64,000 bases of DNA from Pseudobdellovibrionaceae bacterium (lineage in GTDB: Bacteria > Bdellovibrionota > Bdellovibrionia > Bdellovibrionales > Bdellovibrionaceae). The stretch is from NCBI GenBank assembly GCA_044359815.1, contig JBIKLL010000005.1, forward strand, positions 18,840 through 82,839, given 5' to 3'. Within the stretch, counting starts at the first letter, position 1; each line of letters begins with the position of its first letter. A program made the position numbers and the translations under genes. Shown here piece after piece: positions 4,627-45,235 of the stretch. The notes beneath the pieces are model-generated. The model made no database searches and was not told the DNA's origin. It saw nothing but the letters and a program-made list of their open reading frames with translations.

Positions 4627-5337
4627 CTAAGGCTCAATCCCCAAATAATGAAATGTAAATGTTGGTTTGATACCTGCCAGACGGGGAGCTCTGGGTATAA
4701 TCACCAGATCATCACCAGCTTGCACATCCATCGTGGTTGAAACTGCTGCTGTTTCCTTTTCGTTGTTTTGATCACAGCCTTGTGTTGAGCCAGATATTTT
4801 TTTATAGGAAAAGGCATAGCGTTTTTGCCCGTTGACGCCTTGATAGCAATAATGATGTCGTTCGGTGCTGTCGGATTTTTCGATGATAAAATCAACCCAT
4901 CCGCCGTTTTCGTTATTGGTCAGCAACAAAACATCAATCACCGAAGGTATGGTCAACACACCTGTGTGGGTGATATCGATACGGTTGTCTGACCAAGTAA
5001 TGCCTCGATCCACAACAATTGTCAGGCTGGCCAGGACAACATTTTTACCGTCTTTGCCATCCACACCGTTAGTGCCATTGATTCCATTTGTGCCGTCCAC
5101 ACCATTTGTGCCATTGATTCCGTTTGTTCCGTCGACACCGTTAGTACCATTGATGCCGTCTTTGCCATCCACACCGTTAGTGCCATTGATTCCATTTGTG
5201 CCGTCTTTACCTGCGGTTACTGATTCGACTGTGCTATCGGGTGGGACGGTTTCCGAGGAGGCGGATTCTGATTTTTTATCACAGGCTGCCAACAGACCCA
5301 TCAGACTAAAAATTATAAACAGTTTTTTTGTATCCAT
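4627..5337 (-). CDS. Collagen-like lipoprotein
   Basis: Start MDTKK with GGGGA RBS; LLAAC lipobox; 19 consecutive Gly-X-Y triplets. Confidence 0.8.
   Translation of the reverse strand: MDTKKLFIIFSLMGLLAACDKKSESASSETVPPDSTVESVTAGKDGTNGINGTNGVDGKDGINGTNGVDGTNGINGTNGVDGTNGINGTNGVDGKDGKNVVLASLTIVVDRGITWSDNRIDITHTGVLTIPSVIDVLLLTNNENGGWVDFIIEKSDSTERHHYCYQGVNGQKRYAFSYKKISGSTQGCDQNNEKETAAVSTTMDVQAGDDLVIIPRAPRLAGIKPTFTFHYLGIEP
5041..5211 (-). repeat. Coding tandem repeat (about 36-bp unit, GINGTNGVDGxx, about 4 copies)
   Basis: Visible in both DNA (GTGCCATTGATTCC recurs) and protein. Confidence 0.85.
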
Positions 5338-6229: not shown

Positions 6230-6395
6230 AAAAGAGACCGTACGACTTTTTCTGTCTACAGCGCGAAAACCAATGACTGAACCTAAATGGACAGACATCC
6301 TGATCTTGTATTTTGCATTGTAGTCAAAAAAAAGGACGGTTATTTTTCCGGTCACTTATCGCAGTGTAGACAGAAAAAGTCGTACGGTCTCTTTT
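6230..6395. mobile_element. Non-autonomous fold-back element, 30-bp TIR family, copy 1 (166 bp)
   Basis: AAAAGAGACCGTACGACTTTTTCTGTCTAC at 6230; exact reverse complement ends at 6395. Confidence 0.8.
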
Positions 6396-7661: not shown

Positions 7662-7671
7662 AAAGAGACTG

Positions 7672-7788
7672 AAAAGAGACCGTACGACTTTTTCTGTCTA
7701 CGCCGCAAAAAAACAAATAGAAACTTATCGCAATCAACTGTATTCCATTTTCTGCGGTGTAGACAGAAAAAGTCGTACGGTCTCTTTT
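7672..7788. mobile_element. 30-bp TIR family, copy 2 (117 bp)
   Basis: Same exact TIR pair, preceded by an 11-bp tandem duplication of TGAAAAGAGAC (7659-7680). Confidence 0.8.
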
Positions 7789-10040
7789 CAGGGGCTGGCG
7801 ATGCCGGTGGCTTTATTGACTGTGCCTAGGCCATGATAAGCCTTGGTTCCAAATCCCATGAGATCGCCACCCACTACAACTTGGGTGGATGTAAATCCTA
7901 AATCAAAAGCTTCAAAAGTTCCGGAGCGGGAAGTGTCTGGCAACCAGGATGGATCAAAAGCCAAAGTGGTTTCATTGTATCTGCGCACATCATTGTCAGT
8001 GCCTACATAAATCCATCCGTTATCGATTCCGACGGCTTGTGCGGCTGTATTGGGAAAGGTTGGAGTGACATAAGTAACTGCAGCTGGGTTAGTAAAATCA
8101 ATCGCACTAAATCTGCGAAAGGCATTAGCACCCATATTGTTAAATTCACCGACTGCAATTAATTTATTTGTAGCAGTTGAGTGTTCGATATTCTGAACCA
8201 CGCCGTCGGGATTGGGTAACCAAGCTAAATCAATGGCAGCAGTTGTGGGGTGAACCCTGGCCAATCGACGAACGCTGGTATTACCGCTTAATCGTGTGAA
8301 CGCTCCAGCTACATAAATCTGTCCACCGATATGTTTGACCTGATTGATTTGATTATTTGCGTTCGGATTCCAAGGCAGCAATACAAACGATGGAAAACTG
8401 GTTAAATCCAATGCTGCCAAACGATTGCGAGCTGTTGAATTAACCAAACCAAAATCACCACCGACGTAAACTGTGTTTCCCACAATCTCGGTACTGTAAA
8501 CCGGATTATCAATATCTGTATTAAATCCTGCGATAATCGCCCCAGTGTTTTCGTTAACTGCAAACAGTCCATCGAGCCCCGATACCGGAGTGTGCCCAAT
8601 TAATAAACTGGTGCTAAATTTATTAATTGAAAAAACTGAGTGGTTTGTACCCGTAATCGGCGAAGTGAATGCCGGATCAACCAATCCTGTGGCTAGATTT
8701 ATTTTTGCCAGTCCTCGACGTAAAAATGGATTTTTAACTCCCAAAGTCCCAGCAAAATAGACCTCAGTCGCATTTGCAGCCATACTGAATGTTGTGCCAG
8801 CAAAATTTCCTGCTGAATCCTGTAACACTGTTTTCCAGCCAGTATCAATAACTCCAGTCAGCTTATTGGCCTTGCGTCCGTTAGCACTGATGATGTCTGA
8901 GCCCACAATCACAAAATCCAACTGCATTGAGTTGCCAAAATTTGTTTGAACGGCTGCGGTAGTTGGGTGCAGTCGCAATAATGTAGCAGTTGTTGGTGCA
9001 AAAGATGGATGAGCAATCGCTCCAGCTAATACGTAAGTGCTGATTCCATCGTACTCAATATTGTAGAAGTAGGTACTGAGTGTTCCTATATCAAAAGTCG
9101 CTACTTGGTTGACACGATTTGCATGCACCATTGCAAAATCAATTCTTGAATTGCCACCGACTGTTTCAAACTCGCCACCTATGTATAAACTGGGATCACC
9201 ACTGGGTGAAAGTGTCGGACCGATCTCAATTTCATTTACAAAAGTCTGCGTGGTGGTGTGGGTAAAGCTTAGGCTAAGGCTTGGAACCAAAACATTTGTG
9301 TTTAGATTTACTGCAGCCACATGTTGTCGCGCAGAATTGGATCCACCAATGTTGATGTTATTAAAATACCCGCCCAAATACATAATGTCCGTGACCAGAT
9401 CTATTTCAAAATCTGAAATTGAAGCGTCAGCCCTAACATTAAATGCTGTATTCACTGAACCAGTCAGCAAATCAATTTTGGCCATGCTGTGGGAGCCAAA
9501 GCCGTCACTGTACAATGTTCCACCACCTAAATATAAAAATCCTTCGTGAACCTTCATCTGATTGACAGCTAAACCGTCCATTGGAATACTAGTGTTCCAC
9601 GTCAGATCCAAGGTTCCATCGGCATTAATTTTTGAAAGTCCTTCATGCAAAAATCCACCGACGTATTTGTAAGCGCCGCTTACAATCCAACCGCCCGATG
9701 GGTGAGCTACAACTGCTGTGGTGTATCCATCAATCAAATGATAGTTGGGAGCCAGTGATGAAATATTTCCATTTGAAACATTAATTGGAACCCCAGATCC
9801 TGAGCACTCTCCAGCGTACACAAAATTACCTGCCAAATACATACTGGTGTTTTCAACAAAAACATCATTGACGGTCGCATTATTGCCACCATTCCTATCA
9901 CCAAAAACGCAAACACCGGTACCCATCAAAGAAAGGACCCCGTTGTTTTTGTTTTTCCAAAATGAATTTTGGTGAAAAATTGCTTCAGTTGAAAACGAAA
10001 AAAGGTATGAAAACAAAAATAGAAAAATAAATGTTTTCAA
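7788..10040 (-). CDS. Secreted beta-propeller/delta-60-like repeat protein
   Basis: TTG start with GGTGGGG RBS; signal peptide; repeated YVGGxF, RxxLAx and DxxW-x-P-x-x-(D/N) blades. Confidence 0.8.
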   Translation of the reverse strand: MKTFIFLFLFSYLFSFSTEAIFHQNSFWKNKNNGVLSLMGTGVCVFGDRNGGNNATVNDVFVENTSMYLAGNFVYAGECSGSGVPINVSNGNISSLAPNYHLIDGYTTAVVAHPSGGWIVSGAYKYVGGFLHEGLSKINADGTLDLTWNTSIPMDGLAVNQMKVHEGFLYLGGGTLYSDGFGSHSMAKIDLLTGSVNTAFNVRADASISDFEIDLVTDIMYLGGYFNNINIGGSNSARQHVAAVNLNTNVLVPSLSLSFTHTTTQTFVNEIEIGPTLSPSGDPSLYIGGEFETVGGNSRIDFAMVHANRVNQVATFDIGTLSTYFYNIEYDGISTYVLAGAIAHPSFAPTTATLLRLHPTTAAVQTNFGNSMQLDFVIVGSDIISANGRKANKLTGVIDTGWKTVLQDSAGNFAGTTFSMAANATEVYFAGTLGVKNPFLRRGLAKINLATGLVDPAFTSPITGTNHSVFSINKFSTSLLIGHTPVSGLDGLFAVNENTGAIIAGFNTDIDNPVYSTEIVGNTVYVGGDFGLVNSTARNRLAALDLTSFPSFVLLPWNPNANNQINQVKHIGGQIYVAGAFTRLSGNTSVRRLARVHPTTAAIDLAWLPNPDGVVQNIEHSTATNKLIAVGEFNNMGANAFRRFSAIDFTNPAAVTYVTPTFPNTAAQAVGIDNGWIYVGTDNDVRRYNETTLAFDPSWLPDTSRSGTFEAFDLGFTSTQVVVGGDLMGFGTKAYHGLGTVNKATGIASP

Positions 10041-12862: not shown

Positions 12863-12984
12863 TGCTTTTCTAAAAAATTTTAAATTTACAGAATTAAAAA
12901 CAATTTCGGACGTTAAGCTGCGAGGATGAATTACATTATTCAATTACATCCTTCAGGCGCAGCTTAGCGCCCGCTGTTCGAGTT
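12863..12984 (+). repeat. Solo, right-truncated copy of the C/D bulged hairpin module
   Basis: TTCGGACGTTAAGCTGCG...CGCAGCTTAGCGCCCGCTGTTCGAGTT matches the cores at about 17776 and 18716; a decayed left AT-rich arm is present. Confidence 0.75.
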
Positions 12985-17652: not shown

Positions 17653-17666
17653 AAAAAGAGACCGTT

Positions 17667-17962
17667 AAAAGAGACCGTACGACTTTTTCTGTCTACAGCG
17701 CATGACAAACGGTTATTAAAATTTAAATGCCATAGTGCTTTTTATAAAAAAATCTAAATTGGTAATTTTAAAAACGAGTTCGGACGGGAAGCTGCGCGGA
17801 TGATTTAAATGCATTCAGTACTTAAATGCGCGCAGCTTTGCGCCCGCTGTTTGAGTTTTTGAAACTGCCAATTTAGATTTTTTTATAAAAAGCATTATGG
17901 CATTTCTAGAATGTTGCTTTTCACATTGCGGTGTAGACAGAAAAAGTCGTACGGTCTCTTTT
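17667..17962. mobile_element. 30-bp TIR family, copy 3 (296 bp), containing a nested C/D hairpin
   Basis: Exact TIR pair; internal fold-back at about 17725-17905; partial TIR duplicate at 17654-17665. Confidence 0.8.
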
Positions 17963-18111: not shown

Positions 18112-18567
18112 ATGAGATTAAGTTTATTGTTGGCTTCGGTAACTTTGATGCTTGCTGCTTTGAATGTGCAGGCTGCTAATTCGGTCAGTTATAACAGCTA
18201 TGAAGAGGTAGAAAAGGCTTTTGATTCTATTCACCCACTTGATGTGGTCAAACTCACTGATAGAACTTTTCTAAAGGGTAATTGCTATTGGTCTGAAGAT
18301 CCATCAGCTAAAATTCCTGCGGGCTTAGGTTTTTTTGAACTTAAAATTGCATTGGTCAAGCAACTTTCTGCAGATATAAATAGCTTCGTTGGATTTTACG
18401 ACAGACATTCAAACAGGTTTATAGAATTGTCCCGCAATCCATTATCTGGAGATTTGAACGCAGACTATGTAACTGAAATCTATTCAATCCGGCAAAGGGG
18501 TCAAACTGTTTTTGCTTATAGCAGCGTAGACCGTAGTGCCGGATCCTTTTTATGTGTGTACCAATAA
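18112..18567 (+). CDS. Secreted hypothetical protein
   Basis: GGAGG RBS before ATG 18112 and a signal peptide ending in VQA; the longer track ORF starts inside repeat DNA. Confidence 0.75.
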   Translation: MRLSLLLASVTLMLAALNVQAANSVSYNSYEEVEKAFDSIHPLDVVKLTDRTFLKGNCYWSEDPSAKIPAGLGFFELKIALVKQLSADINSFVGFYDRHSNRFIELSRNPLSGDLNADYVTEIYSIRQRGQTVFAYSSVDRSAGSFLCVYQ

Positions 18568-18940
18568 AAAGAGACCGTACGACTTTTTCTGTCTACAGCG
18601 CAGGATAAAAAATGAAACCGACTTGGATGTCTACAGCGGACGGTGAAAGTGCACCGTCAAACAGCAAGACCCTATAGCCATTTATAAAAAAATCCAAATC
18701 CATGTTTTTAAAAACGAGTTCGGACGTGAAGCTGCGCGGATGATTTAAATGCATTCAGTACTTAAATGCGCGCAGCTTTGCGCCCGCTGTTTGAGTTTTT
18801 AAGAATACGGATTTGGATTTTTTTATAAATGGCTATAGGTATGGCCGGGGCTTTAGAACTTTACAAAACTCAGAAAAAAGAGAGGCAAGCCTCTCTTTTT
18901 ATCATGCGGTGTAGACAGAAAAAGTCGTACGGTCTCTTTT
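18567..18940. mobile_element. 30-bp TIR family, copy 4 (374 bp), containing a nested C/D hairpin and a terminator
   Basis: Exact TIR pair; internal fold-back at 18671-18839; extra hairpin GACGGTG/CACCGTC at 18639-18658. Confidence 0.8.
18875..18900. terminator. Bidirectional intrinsic terminator
   Basis: AAAAAGAGAGGC-AA-GCCTCTCTTTTT, between convergent genes. Confidence 0.8.
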
Positions 18941-19401
18941 TACTTTAGTAGTTCTTTGGCTTCTGATTGAAGGCCGCGGATCCAAGCTAATGCCACAGTG
19001 GATTTTGAAAGATCTTTTTTAGCCCAAGCGATTTCTCGGATTTTGACAGCAAAATCTAACTTTTCGCCCAGTGCGCTCATTACTGAAACTCTGTCGCCAG
19101 TGCTGGATTCGGAATTAGGATTCAGCATAGAAGCTTCAACCTGTAAATTGTCGATAGTTTTAATAGCTTGATCCATTTCTTGAATCTGCATCATAAAGAT
19201 TTGCTTAATGTCAGATGGCTTCAGCTGATTTGCAGCCTGTGAGGCACTGTGGTTGCTGGTTGTGATGATATCGTACCTTTCAATGGACTGGGTGATCAGT
19301 TGATCGCGCACTTGATCGGCATTGGCGTAGGTCACAGCGATTGTGATTACAGTAAACAGTGTCCAGAACAGTTGTTTTTGCTTCCAGTAGCTCATGGTCA
19401 T
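18940..19401 (-). CDS. Secreted helical hypothetical protein
   Basis: Signal peptide ending in ANA; AAGGA RBS. Confidence 0.7.
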   Translation of the reverse strand: MTMSYWKQKQLFWTLFTVITIAVTYANADQVRDQLITQSIERYDIITTSNHSASQAANQLKPSDIKQIFMMQIQEMDQAIKTIDNLQVEASMLNPNSESSTGDRVSVMSALGEKLDFAVKIREIAWAKKDLSKSTVALAWIRGLQSEAKELLK

Positions 19402-38369: not shown

Positions 38370-38859
38370 TAAGCCTGACCCATTATTTGTATTTTTAAAA
38401 TACTTCGATGATTTTACACCTTGAGAATACATTTGCGAGCGCGACGGTTAATTTACCGCCGCATATCTGGTGTTGTGTCATAATGTGAAAGCGCAATTTT
38501 TATTGAATCTGAATTAGTTTTCTGAAACCAGATTTTGCATTTTCAAATTTTTCTTTATTTTATACCTTTTGAATACTTGCTAACGGCCGCAAGCTCATCT
38601 CTCGTATTGTGTCATGCCGCCATTGCTGCATGACACAACACCAGATATGCCATGCGCGCTCGCAAATGTATTCAAAAGGTATAAAATAAAGAAAAATTTG
38701 AAAATACAAAATCTGGTTTCAGAAAACTAACCTTAGATTGATTAACTGCTTTTAAGTTTATGACTCAATACGAGAGATGAGCTTGCGGCCGTTAGCAAGT
38801 ATTCACAAGGTGTAAAATCATCGAAGTATTTTTAAAATACAAATAATGGGTCTAGCTTA
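38370..38859. repeat. Nested A/B fold-back element, locus 1 (490 bp; order A, B, A', B')
   Basis: Outer IR 38370-38430 / 38799-38859; inner 63-bp IR 38514-38576 / 38668-38730 with one mismatch. Confidence 0.9.
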
Positions 38860-38967
38860 AAAATTTTTCAGCAGTTTTCGAATCTTTACTCATACCAAAG
38901 TCCAAAGAGTCTCGGTTGGCGATCTGAATTATTGTGATGTCCAGTGCCCATTAGATAGAATGTCAGT

Positions 38968-39789
38968 ATGACGGCATGGATACTGTTTCAGATTTTATTG
39001 AACTTGATGGTTTTAACTTTTGTTTCTGTCCTGTGGTTCAGATCGCTGCGACCTAGCAAGGACGATCCCCGTATGAGTCGGGGACTGCAATTGTTGCAAT
39101 CAAAAATTGCTGTGCTGGAGGATCTGATTGATCGCACAGACAATCAGGGTCAGACATTGTTATCCATGATGGAAACAAAAACTGCCGAGCTGAAAATCAG
39201 AATCAAAGAAGCCGAAGAAGAATTGAAAAACATCGAAGAATCTCGTAAAAAAAGCTTGGAAGTCGCCAAAATATTTCAGGACAAAGTTCCTCACGATGAT
39301 ATTTTGCAGATGCAGAAGTCACAAAAATACGTCAAGGCCGCCAAAATGGCTAATGCCGGAATCGATATAAAAGAAATCGCAAGACAGGTTGATTTATCAT
39401 TGGGCGAGCTGGAATTTATTTCCAAGGTTAATCAGGATGAATTGCAGTTTTCAGATCAAGATTTACCAGGCTGGATTGAAGATTCAGCTGTTGTTAAAAC
39501 TAATGAAATTCAAAACTCCACGCCGGCTGTTAATAGATCTGTGCACAAAACTGATTCGCAAAAACTGGAGGATTTGGGAAACAAATTCAGACAGGTTATG
39601 GCATCAGGAAATACAGCGATAATGGGTGCATCTAGTAGTGTTTCACCAGTTCCTAATACCGGAATGGGATCTGCGACTGTTGTAAAAAGTAATTTTGGTA
39701 ATCCGTCCGCAGCTGTTAAGCAACCTGTTAATGAACCTGGCCAGATCAAACGGGTGGTCTTTCCAAAAATCCAATCAGGGTCTTTTTAG
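38968..39789 (+). CDS. Membrane-anchored coiled-coil protein with DUF2802-like HTH
   Basis: N-terminal TM, coiled coil, AAKMA..G..I.EIA..VDLSLGELE. Confidence 0.7.
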   Translation: MTAWILFQILLNLMVLTFVSVLWFRSLRPSKDDPRMSRGLQLLQSKIAVLEDLIDRTDNQGQTLLSMMETKTAELKIRIKEAEEELKNIEESRKKSLEVAKIFQDKVPHDDILQMQKSQKYVKAAKMANAGIDIKEIARQVDLSLGELEFISKVNQDELQFSDQDLPGWIEDSAVVKTNEIQNSTPAVNRSVHKTDSQKLEDLGNKFRQVMASGNTAIMGASSSVSPVPNTGMGSATVVKSNFGNPSAAVKQPVNEPGQIKRVVFPKIQSGSF

Positions 39790-39791
39790 TC

Positions 39792-40028
39792 ATGAAGAAC
39801 TTAGCTTTAGAAAAGGGACAAACAGTCTTGGCAAAGGTCATCGAAAAAGTTTCTGATGGCGTTTTGATTGTCAGCATTTACGGAAATCTGATCAGGGTCG
39901 TTAATGAATCTAATAATCCGATTCAGATCAATCAGGTCATTCAGTTAACAGTGACTCACCAAGATCCGTTGCAATTTAAAATCGAAAATTTCAGTAAATC
40001 AACCAGATCCAGTGACTTGTATATCTAG
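39792..40028 (+). CDS. Small OB-fold-like hypothetical protein
   Basis: ORF closely coupled to the upstream gene; beta-rich. Confidence 0.6.
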   Translation: MKNLALEKGQTVLAKVIEKVSDGVLIVSIYGNLIRVVNESNNPIQINQVIQLTVTHQDPLQFKIENFSKSTRSSDLYI

Positions 40029-40945
40029 ACAGGCCCTATTTTTGTTTCCTTGATGGCGTCGTCTTCAGTCGACAAACGGTTTTTTAATTTAGCGCCCAGG
40101 TCCTCTAGCTCTTTGAATTCATCCTTTGTGCGCAGCCTGAATTCGCGAACTTTGCCATCCAACAAATCATTTGTAAATTTCTGAAACGAATATATTGGCC
40201 CGGCAATATTGTGCGAAATAATTTTTCCAGCCGTAAATAAAATCGCGCAACATCCAATGACCACCAATGAAAAGGTCATCACAAAGGGCAGTAGAAATCG
40301 ATCCAGAATCACCGTGTTGTTACCAACAATTTCCAGGATCGTGACCCGCAAGTAGGTGTAAAAGAAAACCAAGCTGACTAAGCCAATACCCAGCCCCACA
40401 CTTAGCAACAGCATGCAGTATTTCAATTGAAACTTCATATTGATCCAATACTGTTTGCGGGCATTATTTTCGGGCCACAGAATGTCGCCGTCACGAATGA
40501 TAGAATAAACAATCATGCCGTATCCAATCCATTGAATGGCATCTGCCAGATTGAAAGCAGGACTAGTGATGTTCACAGTGCCAACAACAATAAAATCAAT
40601 CACGTGACCATAAATGATTCTGTCGGTGACGTTGCCTAAAATCCCACCTAATAAAACCGACAGACCTGTTCTTAGAACCAAAGATCTGATTGGTAGCAAA
40701 TATTGAATCAGGGCGTAGGTGCAAACCAAGAAAGCTCCACCGGTCGACAACGATACGACCCGCAGTACGGGTGGCAGATCTGCAAACAATCCCAACATTG
40801 CGCCTGGATTGTGATGTAATACGAATCCAAAAAAACCATATGATTTGATTCCTACCAGGCTGTCAGCCCATTCTTTGGTAATGCGGTCAATAAACCAAGT
40901 CAGAAACAAGGGTACAAACACTATGAACCATTCTCTGTTCTTCAT
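40025..40945 (-). CDS. lspA: Lipoprotein signal peptidase II with C-terminal 2TM + HAMP-like extension
   Basis: DRITK, NPGA, GNVTDR, VIDF and FNLAD motifs; C-terminal SHNIAGPI...LRTKDEFKEL. Confidence 0.85.
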   Translation of the reverse strand: MKNREWFIVFVPLFLTWFIDRITKEWADSLVGIKSYGFFGFVLHHNPGAMLGLFADLPPVLRVVSLSTGGAFLVCTYALIQYLLPIRSLVLRTGLSVLLGGILGNVTDRIIYGHVIDFIVVGTVNITSPAFNLADAIQWIGYGMIVYSIIRDGDILWPENNARKQYWINMKFQLKYCMLLLSVGLGIGLVSLVFFYTYLRVTILEIVGNNTVILDRFLLPFVMTFSLVVIGCCAILFTAGKIISHNIAGPIYSFQKFTNDLLDGKVREFRLRTKDEFKELEDLGAKLKNRLSTEDDAIKETKIGPV

Positions 40946-41875
40946 TTAGTTCCTTCCTGCGGTGACGATTTTGTTTCGTCCCATTTCCTTAGCTCTGTAA
41001 AGCGCTTGATCAGCGCCTTCAATAATTGCTTTATAGGTTTTTCCCATCAAAGGAAAATTGCTTATACCCAGACTGATTGTGATGGGCTTTTTGTCTTTTG
41101 AAAACTCTTTTTCAACGGCTGACCGTAATCTTTCAGCCACAAGCTCAGAAGACTTCAAATCAGTGTCTGGTAAAATAACAGAGAACTCTTCACCACCATA
41201 ACGACAGACAACATCAAAGTTCCTTAGGTGCTTTTCAAATAATCTGGAAATTTTAAACAAAATTGAATTTCCTTGTGGATGCCCTTCGCTGTCATTGTAT
41301 TCTTTAAAGTGATCGATATCTATCATCAGCAGACCCAGTGGTCTGTTATGGCGTTTTGCGCGCTCCAGCTCTGTTCCCAGGCAGGATTCAAAGTACCTGA
41401 AATTTTTTAAATTAGTAATGGGATCTGTGATCGCCTGTTGTTGTAATTCTGCTTTCTCTAAAAATATGCGAGCCAATTGTGATGCCTGCAGCATTTGCAG
41501 TCTGAAAGTCTCATTGTCCCAAGGCTTCAGGTAACATGAATGAATCCAATTATTATCAAACGCAGGTTGGATCAGTTTCCAGTCAACATGACCTGATACC
41601 AAGATTCTAACTGTGGCTGGCGAAATTTTGCCGATCGATTTCAATAGCTCCAGACCGTTTTGACCTGGCAACAAATAATCAGCAATGATGATATCAGGAT
41701 TATGACTTAAAAACTTACCAGAACCTTCATCAAAACTGGAAGCTGTTTCGACTTTAAAATCCTTGGACAAAAGTTTTGCCAGATTATTGCGAATGATTTC
41801 TTCATCATCAACAATCAGAAGCTTCAGTTTCTGATCAGGAGATTCTGTTAAATGCATATCGCTGTGTTCGCTCAT
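40946..41875 (-). CDS. Response-regulator diguanylate cyclase (REC-GGDEF)
   Basis: LIVDD, DYLLP, DIDHFKEYND, RNFD I-site and GGEEF motifs. Confidence 0.95.
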   Translation of the reverse strand: MSEHSDMHLTESPDQKLKLLIVDDEEIIRNNLAKLLSKDFKVETASSFDEGSGKFLSHNPDIIIADYLLPGQNGLELLKSIGKISPATVRILVSGHVDWKLIQPAFDNNWIHSCYLKPWDNETFRLQMLQASQLARIFLEKAELQQQAITDPITNLKNFRYFESCLGTELERAKRHNRPLGLLMIDIDHFKEYNDSEGHPQGNSILFKISRLFEKHLRNFDVVCRYGGEEFSVILPDTDLKSSELVAERLRSAVEKEFSKDKKPITISLGISNFPLMGKTYKAIIEGADQALYRAKEMGRNKIVTAGRN

Positions 41876-41965
41876 GGTTGTGGTGATCCTGTTTGTTGGT
41901 GCTAACACTTGATGTTCAATAACCTTTCGGTTGAATCACTTAATTTCTGCAGATAAGATTTTGAT

Positions 41966-43393
41966 ATGACTCAAATATTTTATTTTTTAATGTGTCTATG
42001 CCTGCCCCTTTTCGCTAACTCACAATCCGCCCGTCTGGTCGAGTCTTTAAAATCCAAGCTTCAAGCTGAGATTTCAAAAGCTAAAATCCCAACCAAGGAC
42101 CTGGGGCTTATTGCTACGATTCATTCTGATGCGTCAGTGCAAGAAATTTTTGAACTGAATTCTGATAAACAATTCACCCCGGCTTCTATCACCAAGCTGA
42201 TAACAGCAGCAGCAGTGTTGAATCAAATTCCGCCGGGAACTCGGTTTAAAACATTTTTGTATTTTAGAGGGAAGCCTGAGGGCGAAACCTTGAAAGGTTC
42301 TGTTGTCTTGGCTGGCAGCGGAGATCCTTCATTTGTGTCGGAAAACATGTGGTTTTTGGTAAACGCTTTTACGCGAACCGGAGTGCGAAACATTCAGGGC
42401 GACATTATTATTGATAGTACGATTTTTGATTCGGTAAAATTTGATGAAAGCCGCGAAAAAGACCGCGTTGATCGAGCCTATGATGCCCCGACCAGTGGAG
42501 CTTCTTTTAATTGGAATTCTGTAAATATTTTTGTCAGACCGTCCAAATCAGGGCAGCCCGCCAGTGTATTTTTAGATCCTGAAAATCAATTCACTCATTT
42601 GGTTAACAAGGTTAAAACTGTGGCTGCCGGCAAAAAGACCGAAGTGTTTTCAGACAGACTGGATTCTAATGATGGTAAAAACACTATTAAAGTTTACGGT
42701 CAGATCGCAGAAAATGATAAAGAAGTCACAATTTTTAAAAACATCACTCAACCTGATCTGTGGATCGGTAACCAGCTTGTTTCATTTTTAAAACAAAGAG
42801 GCGTGACAGTTAGTGGTAAAGTCATTGTGGGAAAATCTAATGCCAGTGATGTGGTGGCAGCTGTTTCTGAATCCAAACCTATCGAACACATGCTGTCTGA
42901 TATGAATAAATTTTCGAACAACTATGTGGCAGAAATGTTGACAAAACAATTAGGATCTTTGTCCAGTACACCCGGGACAATTGAAAATGGTGTTCAGAAA
43001 ATGCGAATCTATCTTAAGGATATAGGGATCCCTGAAAAAGAATATGTTTTACTGAGCCCTTCGGGATTAAATCGCGATAATCAATTTACGGCTAAGCATT
43101 TTTTAACTGTTCTTACTGCAGTTCAAAAACAATTAAAACTGTACCCCGAATTTCTGTCGTCGCTGCCCATTGCCGGTGTTGATGGGACTCTGAAAAATCG
43201 AATGAAGGGGACTCCGGCTGAAAGGTGGGTCAGAGCCAAGACTGGATATTTGAATTCTGTTATCAGCCTGGCTGGTTTTGCAGGACGTAAGGATGGAACT
43301 GTTGTTCCCTTTGTTTTCATTTTTAATGGTTCAGCCGATGAAGCAAAAGTGAGATCATTATTTGATCGCTTGAGCACAATATTGGTGGAGTAA
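41966..43393 (+). CDS. dacB: D-Ala-D-Ala carboxy/endopeptidase PBP4
   Basis: PASITKL (SxxK), SNN and AKTG motifs; GDP motif. Confidence 0.95.
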   Translation: MTQIFYFLMCLCLPLFANSQSARLVESLKSKLQAEISKAKIPTKDLGLIATIHSDASVQEIFELNSDKQFTPASITKLITAAAVLNQIPPGTRFKTFLYFRGKPEGETLKGSVVLAGSGDPSFVSENMWFLVNAFTRTGVRNIQGDIIIDSTIFDSVKFDESREKDRVDRAYDAPTSGASFNWNSVNIFVRPSKSGQPASVFLDPENQFTHLVNKVKTVAAGKKTEVFSDRLDSNDGKNTIKVYGQIAENDKEVTIFKNITQPDLWIGNQLVSFLKQRGVTVSGKVIVGKSNASDVVAAVSESKPIEHMLSDMNKFSNNYVAEMLTKQLGSLSSTPGTIENGVQKMRIYLKDIGIPEKEYVLLSPSGLNRDNQFTAKHFLTVLTAVQKQLKLYPEFLSSLPIAGVDGTLKNRMKGTPAERWVRAKTGYLNSVISLAGFAGRKDGTVVPFVFIFNGSADEAKVRSLFDRLSTILVE

Positions 43394-43394
43394 C

Positions 43395-44822
43395 GTGAAC
43401 AAGATTTTAAAGTTTATACTGATAGTTGGAGTTATGGATGGTTTTATTGCCTGTTCACATGCGCAATCAACCGCACCAGAACCTTCAGCGGTGGATGCAG
43501 CAGATACCAGATATCCAGCAGTCAGTGATGAGGAAGTCCCCGACGACACACCTGTACAGTTTGAGGAAATTGCTGGTAATCAGTCATTAACTGGTAAAAG
43601 ACCTTGGCGTCCACCCAATTATGCCAGTCAAGAAAACAGCATGGGTTACAGTAAAGAGGTTTTTGATATCCCTAAGGGCTTAGAAACTAACGTAAAATTT
43701 TGGACAGATATTTACACCAAGTACACGACAGACCAAGGGGTCTTGCATGATTCTGAACACATTGATCTGATTTATAAAGAAATCGACTTCAGATCCATTT
43801 CTTCCAGAGGTGATTTAGACATTTATCAAAAAGAAAGAGCCAAAATAAAAATTCTGAAGGAAGCTAAAAAACAAATTATTTCGATGTTGAAAAAGCTGGA
43901 AGAGATCAAAGACCCCAGTGAACTGAACGAGGAAGAAAAGCGTATCTGGGAAGCTTTTAAAAACGAAGAAACTCCTAAAAAATTCAAAGTGGCTCAAGGT
44001 AAAAACAGATTGCGATTTCAGTTGGGCCAACGTGACCGAGTGATCCAGGGGATCTTTTTTTCGGGCAGGTATCTGGAAGAATTTGAAACTATATTTCGCG
44101 AACAAGGAATCCCGATTGAACTGACGCGAATTGCATTTGTTGAAAGCTCTTTTAACGTCATGGCTCGCAGTAAAGTTGGTGCCAGCGGTATTTGGCAAAT
44201 CATGCCCTACACTGCAAAAGGATTTATGAAAAAAGATCCGGCTTTTGATTTGAGAAATCATCCGATTGAAGCCACTAAATTAGCCGCCAAATTGTTTCGC
44301 AATAACTATAATATGCTAAAGGCTTGGCCGTTAGCTGTGACTGGTTACAATCATGGACCTGCAGGCGTGCTCAGATTAACCAAAAGATATAAAACCAGAG
44401 AGCTTGGGGAATTAGTTGAAAATGTCAGTTCCAGTAAATCATTTGGCTTTGCCTCTAGAAACTTTTACGCCAGTTTTTTAGCAATTTTAAAAATTGAAGC
44501 TGAAGCACCAAAATATTTTGGTCAGGTTCAATGGTCAGAACTATTAAATCAAGTGAATCTGAAAACCGAATTTCCTATCAAATACGCTGATCTGTTAAGA
44601 TGGTTTGATGGCAGTGATGAAAAACTGCAGATCTATAATCCTCACATCAATAAAATTGCCAGAACAGGCAAAAAAGACATTCCAGCAGGAGTGGTTGTAT
44701 CGGTGATGAAGGACAAAGAAGAAATCGTCAAAGCAGAACTGACTGATGCCCAGAAAATCAAAGAGGCCAGAAACCAACAGGTTTCGGCCCCCTCAATCAA
44801 TCGAACCGCTAACTCTTACTAA
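43395..44822 (+). CDS. Lytic transglycosylase (MltD-like SLT domain)
   Basis: VESSF, GASGIWQIM and YNHG motifs. Confidence 0.9.
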   Translation: MNKILKFILIVGVMDGFIACSHAQSTAPEPSAVDAADTRYPAVSDEEVPDDTPVQFEEIAGNQSLTGKRPWRPPNYASQENSMGYSKEVFDIPKGLETNVKFWTDIYTKYTTDQGVLHDSEHIDLIYKEIDFRSISSRGDLDIYQKERAKIKILKEAKKQIISMLKKLEEIKDPSELNEEEKRIWEAFKNEETPKKFKVAQGKNRLRFQLGQRDRVIQGIFFSGRYLEEFETIFREQGIPIELTRIAFVESSFNVMARSKVGASGIWQIMPYTAKGFMKKDPAFDLRNHPIEATKLAAKLFRNNYNMLKAWPLAVTGYNHGPAGVLRLTKRYKTRELGELVENVSSSKSFGFASRNFYASFLAILKIEAEAPKYFGQVQWSELLNQVNLKTEFPIKYADLLRWFDGSDEKLQIYNPHINKIARTGKKDIPAGVVVSVMKDKEEIVKAELTDAQKIKEARNQQVSAPSINRTANSY

Positions 44823-44829
44823 TTCCAGT

Positions 44830-45235
44830 TGCCCTGGTAGTTTTGAATTTTAGAAAATATTTCTATGATTTTACATCTTGAGAATACTTGCTAACGGCCG
44901 CAAGCTCATCTCTCGTATTGCTTGCATGCAAAGGTAATTTGTTTTTACTGTTTTTAGACACATGCAGCGAGCGCGCGGGGCATATCTGGTGTTGAGTCAT
45001 TTAGATTAATCAGTTTTATGATAATTTTTTAATCGTAAAACTGATTAATCTAAATGACTCAATACGAGAGATGAGCCCGCGGCCGTTAGCGAGTGTCTAA
45101 AAATAGTGAAAAAAATTAACTTTGCATTTATGCAACACCAGATATGCGGCGGTAAATTAAACGTCGCGCTCGCAAATGTATTCTCAAGGTGTAAAATCAT
45201 AGAAATATTTTTTAAAATTCAAAATTACCGGGGCA
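44830..45235. repeat. Nested A/B fold-back element, locus 2 (406 bp; order B, A, B', A', i.e. locus 1 reversed)
   Basis: Outer IR 44830-44887 / 45178-45235; central IR 44995-45022 / 45032-45059; same A and B modules as locus 1. Confidence 0.9.

Follow-up and report, generated by a model that had tools for sequence, protein, structure and literature searches.

Inverted, nested fold-back elements with a conserved internal core in a Pseudobdellovibrionaceae genome: candidate mobile DNA

Two sequences in a 64,000-nucleotide stretch of DNA from a Pseudobdellovibrionaceae bacterium (the whole stretch is the window below), at positions 38370-38859 (locus 1) and 44830-45235 (locus 2), can each fold back into a long rod in which one hairpin appears to sit inside another. 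What kind of element builds such a rod, how does one copy come to lie within the next, and does anything in the cell recognise it? We find a hairpin unit, nested in inverted orientation at both loci, with an internal core that is conserved in sequence and in folding polarity; the units are insertions relative to empty sites in relatives. We read this as non-autonomous mobile DNA, recognised as folded single-stranded DNA (ssDNA) through its internal core by some enzyme, a reading in which belief and doubt are about equal.

Locus 1 lies between an aminotransferase gene and a DUF2802 gene. At locus 2 the genes for a lytic transglycosylase (SLT) and an M14 peptidase converge on the element with their 3′ ends. 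Each rod consists of complementary arms and two kinds of module, A and B, for which an earlier note on this DNA had given coordinates; all of them agree with the sequence. The parts, in window positions, are as follows.

38370 to 38430, + strand: locus 1 outer left arm, AT-rich, starting 3 nt past the aminotransferase stop codon, 93% complementary to 38799-38859
38431 to 38475, + strand: locus 1 module A of the outer unit, a variant with a small hairpin insert; forms the core with 38766-38798 and folds on the + strand
38476 to 38513, + strand: locus 1 probable left half of the host unit's tip hairpin remnant, judged from its likeness to 44-nt tip hairpins; pairs loosely with 38731-38765
38514 to 38576, + strand: locus 1 arm belonging to the inserted inner unit; its complementarity to 38668-38730 is 98%
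38577 to 38609, - strand: locus 1 module B of the inner unit; the inner core folds on the - strand
38610 to 38635, no strand assigned: locus 1 tip hairpin of the inner unit, from sequence and fold
38636 to 38667, - strand: locus 1 module A of the inner unit, from sequence and core folding
38668 to 38765, + strand: locus 1 right arm of the inner unit with the right remnant of the host tip, from complementarity and fold
38766 to 38798, + strand: locus 1 module B (reverse complement) of the outer unit, from sequence and core folding
38799 to 38859, + strand: locus 1 outer right arm, from arm complementarity
44830 to 44887, + strand: locus 2 outer arm, 7 nt past the lytic transglycosylase stop codon
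44888 to 44920, - strand: locus 2 module B of the outer unit; the core folds on the - strand
44921 to 44961, + strand: locus 2 middle stem of the dominant 43/60 dimer type, pairing with 45093-45132
44962 to 44994, + strand: locus 2 module A of the inner unit; the core folds on the + strand
44995 to 45059, no strand assigned: locus 2 tip hairpin of the 66-nt type, AT-rich
45060 to 45092, + strand: locus 2 inner-unit module B, a CCCG variant, as reverse complement
45133 to 45177, - strand: locus 2 module A of the outer unit
45178 to 45235, + strand: locus 2 outer arm on the side of the M14 peptidase stop codon, the genes being convergent

The fold-back rods proposed for the two loci are borne out. 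Folded as DNA, locus 1 gives -160.8 kcal (z -23.6) and locus 2 -134.6 kcal (z -20.1), and none of 100 shuffled sequences folds as well as either. Module A stands opposite B at each junction and the inner junction is inverted relative to the outer one, again as first described. The locus 2 arms (44830-44887 and 45178-45235) are 93% complementary, and the locus 1 segment 38476-38513/38731-38765 shows loose pairing only. No excess of promoters or terminators was found at locus 1. The earlier note took locus 2 for the architecture of locus 1 in reverse. This holds for the order of the modules but not for the middle stem, which is of a different sequence type; since the spacers are 43/60 nt at locus 2 and 104/116 nt at locus 1, the two rods are products of separate nesting events.

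Are these the only copies, as the earlier note allowed they might be? They are not. In the assembly (G000; 2.95 Mb in 125 contigs, completeness 91%) module A occurs 127 times and module B 133 times; together they form 91 clusters, of which 37 lie at the end of a contig. The organism, Bdellovibrio-like to judge from its genes, occurs in lake-water metagenomes; no RNA data set is among those listed as containing it, which says nothing about expression. Complete copies number 47 and comprise 35 four-module dimers and 12 single units laid out as arm, A, tip hairpin, B, arm, with inverted arms of 50-60 bp. As every complete copy is a dimer or a single unit, the single form is the basic unit and the dimer is two units nested in inverted orientation. 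The inner unit is inverted in all 35 four-module clusters, in line with the proposal that one unit had been inserted, inverted, in the tip of another. The dominant dimer type has 43/60-nt spacers, as at locus 2; the other has 104-120-nt spacers and is represented by locus 1: there the tip of a host hairpin contains an entire unit, complete with 63-nt arms. The existence of two types implies at least two nesting events.

The copies favour the gaps between converging genes. Where genes were called on both sides (45 copies), 29 gaps are convergent, 15 tandem and one divergent, against a background of 143 convergent, 327 tandem and 181 divergent among 651 gaps; the excess (29/45 vs 143/651, p 6e-9) depends on crude gene calls based on open reading frames. 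Empty orthologous sites, which the earlier note had proposed to look for, were found: aspC (the aminotransferase gene) and the DUF2802 gene are adjacent in 6 of 13 relatives from other genera, and the SLT and M14 genes in 2 of the 13, none with a rod. The note's non-coding, multi-copy, structured element is supported.

The note had raised the prospect that these palindromes were assembly artefacts. For locus 1, independent contigs from three of four lake runs join the unique flank, the arm and the start of A (to 38437), and in three of the four independent contigs also run outward from B (38792), so that flank, arm and junction are linked independently. The same dimer design recurs in an independently assembled relative, and closed genomes carry single units. 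On the other side, interiors cannot be phased from k=31 contigs. For locus 2, all of the contigs listed end inside the arms and the orientation of the interior is not independently bridged; a collapsed copy at contig C110 has no bridging contig among 32 of 153 pieces listed, and artefacts may therefore account for part of the collapsed or flipped forms. Three runs have a contig that joins window positions 38482 and 38759, skipping 276 nt with 33 letters on the short side; this joined form, absent from the assembly, represents a different locus or else a version of locus 1 with a deletion. That the palindromes as a whole are artefacts is scarcely credible.

The core carries a stronger signal than the covarying arms. 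Ten single units in this genome form a diverged subfamily. When they are aligned with ten units of the main family, 92.8% of cells are paired and both partners have changed at 18 of the 37 pairs, a value reached in none of 500 shuffles, though kinship of the sequences inflates the figure. The covariation sought in the earlier note is thus present in the core. The wobble pairs fall on the strand that reads from A to B, and that strand gives the better fold in all 20 aligned units, so the strand-specific folding also stands.

How far does the core extend beyond this genome? A covariance model was searched over the order, the organism's own family and a sample of the phylum. It matched 14 of 150 genomes of the order, in three families (6/26, 5/32 and 3/3), with up to 21 matches in one genome among 24 scored candidates. 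In the organism's own family it matched none of 149 other genomes, and in the phylum sample nothing outside the order. Simpler searches found less: module B had no exact match in genome_contigs or viral_contigs, BLAST gave only marginal matches, in 3 of 60 relatives, and a degenerate core pattern stayed at control level in 181 family genomes. One viral match was a chance likeness within an HNH gene and plasmid matches were 28-bp AT-rich noise; both were discarded.

Sixty-five of the 100 matches in relatives were taken into the analysis. The A.G mismatch and the unpaired G are conserved in every copy, the flanking helices covary, and G.T, G-C and A-T alternate at several pairs. The arms have a median length of 50 nt and share no sequence across genomes. 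No gene family recurs beside these 65 cores beyond shared sites, and all the relatives' units are single-junction, with no nesting seen; the ‘bidirectional’ structure put forward in the earlier note is therefore dispensable. Two species share one single-match site whose core is the same in both, although the arms on either side have been wholly rewritten and the flanking proteins are 77-82% identical. A core also lies between rsmD and aspC in two genera (L245 in genome G212, L285 in G241), which suggests very old shared sites. By inspection, the cores of G055 and G044 mix motifs of the present family (family 1) with those of a sister family (family 3), and so link the two; arm homology between them is not above AT-rich controls.

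The arms behave differently from the core. All 44 left arms compared are distinct (one broken copy was left out), identity is 0.964 between the arms of one copy against 0.782 between copies, and an arm's own partner is its best match in 40 of 44. Complementarity runs outward from the core for 33-93 nt, mostly 47-76. Terminal inverted repeats (TIRs) of the kind found in MITEs (miniature inverted-repeat transposable elements) thus occur, though they are specific to the copy. Mismatches in the outer arms show no strand preference (G.T 21, A.C 16). Template switching homogenises inverted arms and inverts spacers (PMC8604942). Since it can produce matched arms on its own, arm covariation is weak evidence: the covarying stems are there, and their weight is less than the earlier note assumed. 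Among main-type dimers (n=30) the middle stem is 0.97/0.93 identical between loci, as compared with 0.77 for the arms and 0.80 for the 66-nt tips, a uniformity that would fit gene conversion of interiors into older loci. An outer end motif is shared by 45 of 142 arms, as compared with 56 of 2669 control windows, and in the 11 copies with this motif on both sides no target-site duplication is evident by eye.

In a close relative (88-96% identity) eight of nine loci could be compared, and in all eight the corresponding site is occupied by the element or by what is left of it. Three appear flipped and two keep their arms with another type of interior; these flips and collapses may in part be assembly errors.

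A second regularity concerns the chromosome strand. Of the 65 copies in relatives, 53 have the C-rich strand as the one on which the core folds; masking the element leaves 52 of 65, third-codon skew gives 50, and setting G241 aside gives 32 of 44. The C-rich copies are in the majority in 13 of 14 genomes, with one tie, and in G055 all 12 copies lie on one strand within each contig. If the G-rich strand is taken as the leading one, the folding strand in relatives would be the leading-strand template. [quoted passage not shown] Transcription does not obviously account for the bias. In tandem gene pairs of relatives the mRNA mostly has the non-folding polarity (26 vs 6), and in G241 the bias is also seen at convergent and divergent sites (21/21), where transcription predicts none. 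In the present genome the fraction of genes on a strand increases with skew.

In PMC3116915, PMC3333891 and PMC8266576, repetitive extragenic palindromic (REP) sequences, bacterial interspersed mosaic elements (BIMEs) and REP doublets forming hairpins (REPINs), with their REP-associated tyrosine transposase (RAYT, or TnpA-REP), are high-copy, extragenic and form hairpins from inverted pairs. All of this is found here, with 91 intergenic clusters and an inverted pair that folds into a hairpin. From the same sources, BIMEs set unlike modules against each other, y facing z as A faces B, and offer one active REP per strand, much as the dimer would offer a core; REPs have a conserved stem mismatch or bulge and fold in a strand-specific way. 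In contrast, the present family has no 5′ GTAG/GTGG guide at a short palindrome, its conserved part is a duplex that its halves form midway along a 200-bp rod rather than a pair of REPs at the ends, it flanks no RAYT gene here and some hosts have no Y1 match. TIRs and TIRtrons with their TIRYT enzymes (RAYT group 1, subclass 2.1; PMC3733652 and PMC6006769) also have points in common with it: such enzymes occur in this order, the sister core lies within doublets of that enzyme's terminal repeat here, and the short end motif faintly resembles GGGGWSAS. [quoted passage not shown]

Integron attC sites, to judge from PMC5371416, also combine variable sequence with conserved unpaired features, folding of one strand, a variable terminal stem and a folding strand that is mostly the leading-strand template, the last matched in relatives (53/65) but not in this genome. 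Module B contains GTT/AAC; module A has AGC or GTC instead of AAC, so that paired R boxes are lacking. Long perfect arms lie outside the core, and the copies are dispersed singly after housekeeping genes, with neither cassette arrays nor an integrase over the cut-off. The MITE-like ERIC, Correia and bcr1 repeats are, according to PMC3184786, intergenic fold-backs of 100-300 bp after genes, with the structure of bcr1 kept by compensatory change. Here no target duplication is found in 11 copies with both ends, and the ends are ragged and unconserved, the core being conserved instead. Defining features of these systems are therefore absent, namely the GTAG guide, a flanked RAYT, paired R boxes, an integrase and target duplication. 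By analogy, the best reading is that the element would work like a REPIN, a BIME or an attC site. No description of the family was found in a literature search made largely without subscription journals.

The earlier note suggested that the rods were substrates of a RAYT or other HUH enzyme and proposed a search for a HUH/Y1, reverse transcriptase or recombinase gene flanked by A and B. None was found. Of the note's idea of a structure read as ssDNA or RNA the strand-specific folding is supported; the HUH assignment so far is not, there being no GTAG guide, no core beside a Y1 gene and no Y1 match in four of ten core-bearing genomes. A GTAG or GTGG 5′ of a short palindrome, sought at the core, is missing; GTGG occurs only in the outer end motif, on its 3′ side, in about a third of arms and with no palindrome after it. 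IS110 was not found in this genome. Ten Y1 proteins of 211-238 residues, some ten HNH proteins and two Xer-like recombinases were considered as movers and rejected, as none is systematically adjacent to cores; a single GIY-YIG match lies in a 650-residue frame and is probably UvrC.

The genome does encode a RAYT-like protein (G000:C8:9501-10160), with the HUH motif NHFH and YxxxNP, scoring 72.5 bits against a cut-off of 80; its motifs would place it in subclass 2.1 as set out in PMC6006769. The repeat on either side of it is a different one with 54 copies, and doublets of that repeat enclose the family 3 core at 13 of 19 loci. The nearest copy of the present family is 4 kb away and does not flank the gene, in an assembly that is 91% complete. 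Of 182 family genomes, 121 contain relatives of this RAYT; the RAYT-linked repeats inspected in ten other genomes lack this anatomy, being short singlets or doublets. GGGGWSAS, with up to one mismatch, is found in 9 of 142 arms and 65 of 2669 controls. Module A may bear a short likeness to the inner end of the RAYT-flanking repeats.

Several other repeats and genes were noted. Doublets of the 54-copy repeat lie in the window at 6230-6395, 7669-7791, 17664-17962 and 18565-18942, the last two enclosing the lopsided family 3 core on long AT-rich arms. That core occurs without RAYT-linked ends at 12867-12984, and at G000:C88:8751-8977 it is flanked by a different 18-bp palindrome, also near HNH genes. 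There are eight near-identical 211-residue Y1/HUH genes and two of a second type (contigs C23, C47, C48, C49, C56, C100, C125, C8:23373, C116 and C123), several adjoining long simple-sequence repeats. A decayed, tandemly triplicated family 1 half-element (C56:2300-2620) lies about 350 nt upstream of a 211-residue Y1 gene, the sole such case. About ten HNH genes (C107, C17, C34, C35, C19, C28, C48, C8, C50 and C120) include several that carry a short GC-rich palindrome in their coding sequence and once more upstream, with microsatellites close by. In relatives, several RAYT-like genes (L040-L067) have, by eye, sigma-54-like boxes upstream and short terminal repeats ending in a GC-NNN-GC mini-hairpin. 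A fourth hairpin family has 62 sites in this genome (e.g. C104:16895-17064 and C101:4426), with long AT-rich arms and a branched GC-rich tip of GGA-loop mini-hairpins; 13 of its 117 arms carry the family 1 outer end motif, and exact patterns found no such repeat in 250 genomes of the order or in genome_contigs. An 18-nt tandem array at window positions 5040-5219 is probably a collagen-like coding repeat.

How well, then, does the reading as mobile ssDNA stand? A number of results weigh against it. No mover was found in the genes searched: in this genome there is no systematic Y1, HNH or Xer gene beside the core; in three near-closed relatives no core lies within 1.5 kb of any of the eight Y1 genes; the four core-bearing genomes with no Y1_Tnp match include a closed one; a reverse transcriptase was not found in this genome or in three of five core-bearing relatives; and an integron integrase was found over the cut-off neither here, where two Xer-like recombinases fall below it, nor in any of five relatives. 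No recent jump is seen at the eight comparable sites, which had been chosen for having the element in the relative. The polarity argument assumes that C-rich marks the leading-strand template, draws 21 of its 65 copies from G241 and finds no strand bias in this genome (monomers 7:5, F1b 3:7); moreover, a folding polarity fits RNA equally well. The identical core at the single-match site fits host selection better than selfish spread. This core and the missing mover favour the chief alternative, that the core is a structured RNA element kept by the host: transcripts running past the stop codon would fold into a perfect 50-bp stem, an RNase III-type substrate, capped by a conserved tip, catalytic or bound by a protein, that would define the 3′ ends of mRNAs or be set free as a small RNA, and the inverted dimer would serve both of two convergent genes. 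The copies do lie directly past stop codons, 29 of 45 between convergent genes, and wobble pairs and a tandem U-A/A.G step, invariant in this core, are typical of RNA motifs. Against this stand the predominantly non-folding polarity of the mRNA in tandem pairs, the G241 bias at sites where none is predicted, the patchiness of a core missing from all 149 other genomes of its own family, and outer-arm mismatches without G.T preference. Nor is there an Rfam match: none in the window at the gathering score and, in eight loci, only generic hairpins below threshold, which also leaves the self-cleaving RNA of the earlier note without support. We think this alternative possible, though on balance somewhat unlikely.

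The element might instead be an ordinary REPIN or TIR-type MITE, moved through its outer ends by the RAYT/TIRYT of the order with the core as cargo. The RAYT-like gene whose repeat encloses the sister core, the wide occurrence of its relatives and the shared end motif all suit such an origin, and a short, repeat-flanked gene could have been left unassembled. But the conserved part is internal, the arms share no sequence across genomes, GGGGWSAS is barely enriched, the core-rich genomes G053 and G055 have no Y1 match and the other RAYT-linked repeats lack this anatomy; we rate this explanation as distinctly improbable. Even less can be said for a functionless relic, its palindromes arising and kept up by nothing more than template switching and gene conversion. 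The matched arms, the three apparent flips among eight orthologous sites and the lack of recent insertions are what it would lead one to expect, yet the core mismatches, which template switching should erase, are invariant across four families while neighbouring pairs covary, and an identical core at a single-match site is hard to keep by conversion. Conservation of the core across families largely refutes the relic, which we consider very improbable.

If the element is mobile ssDNA, we infer five steps by which it would persist. Units would enter past stop codons and at hairpin tips, their own included. A folding strand on the lagging-strand template would be exposed as ssDNA and the copy lost faster, and old single units in relatives would for that reason lie mostly on the leading-strand template. 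An inverted dimer would offer one core per strand and so be active facing either way, which would explain its dominance here (35 of 47 complete copies). Template switching would keep the arms of each copy matched and could flip the interior, and gene conversion through the A and B modules would spread one dimer interior over older loci. The replication polarity and the negative Y1 tests are what is new here. A bolder proposal, which we regard as doubtful, is that this is a hitherto undescribed class of small mobile ssDNA element, spread within one order, recognised at an internal lopsided duplex rather than at its ends and moved by an enzyme, of the host or of a new kind, that is neither a RAYT nor IntI, polarised by the fork, targeting hairpin tips and with a dimer evolved to work in either orientation.

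The stems of palindromic repeats can covary without selection, and it is the invariant mismatches that carry real signal. How REP-type repeats spread and persist is unsettled, and the substrates of group-1 RAYTs have barely been studied. Against that background stands a core of about 60 nt, nearly fixed across four families while its arms are rewritten, polarised with respect to the fork and present in genomes with no detectable Y1. It offers a short, defined substrate with which to find a new ssDNA- or RNA-reading protein.

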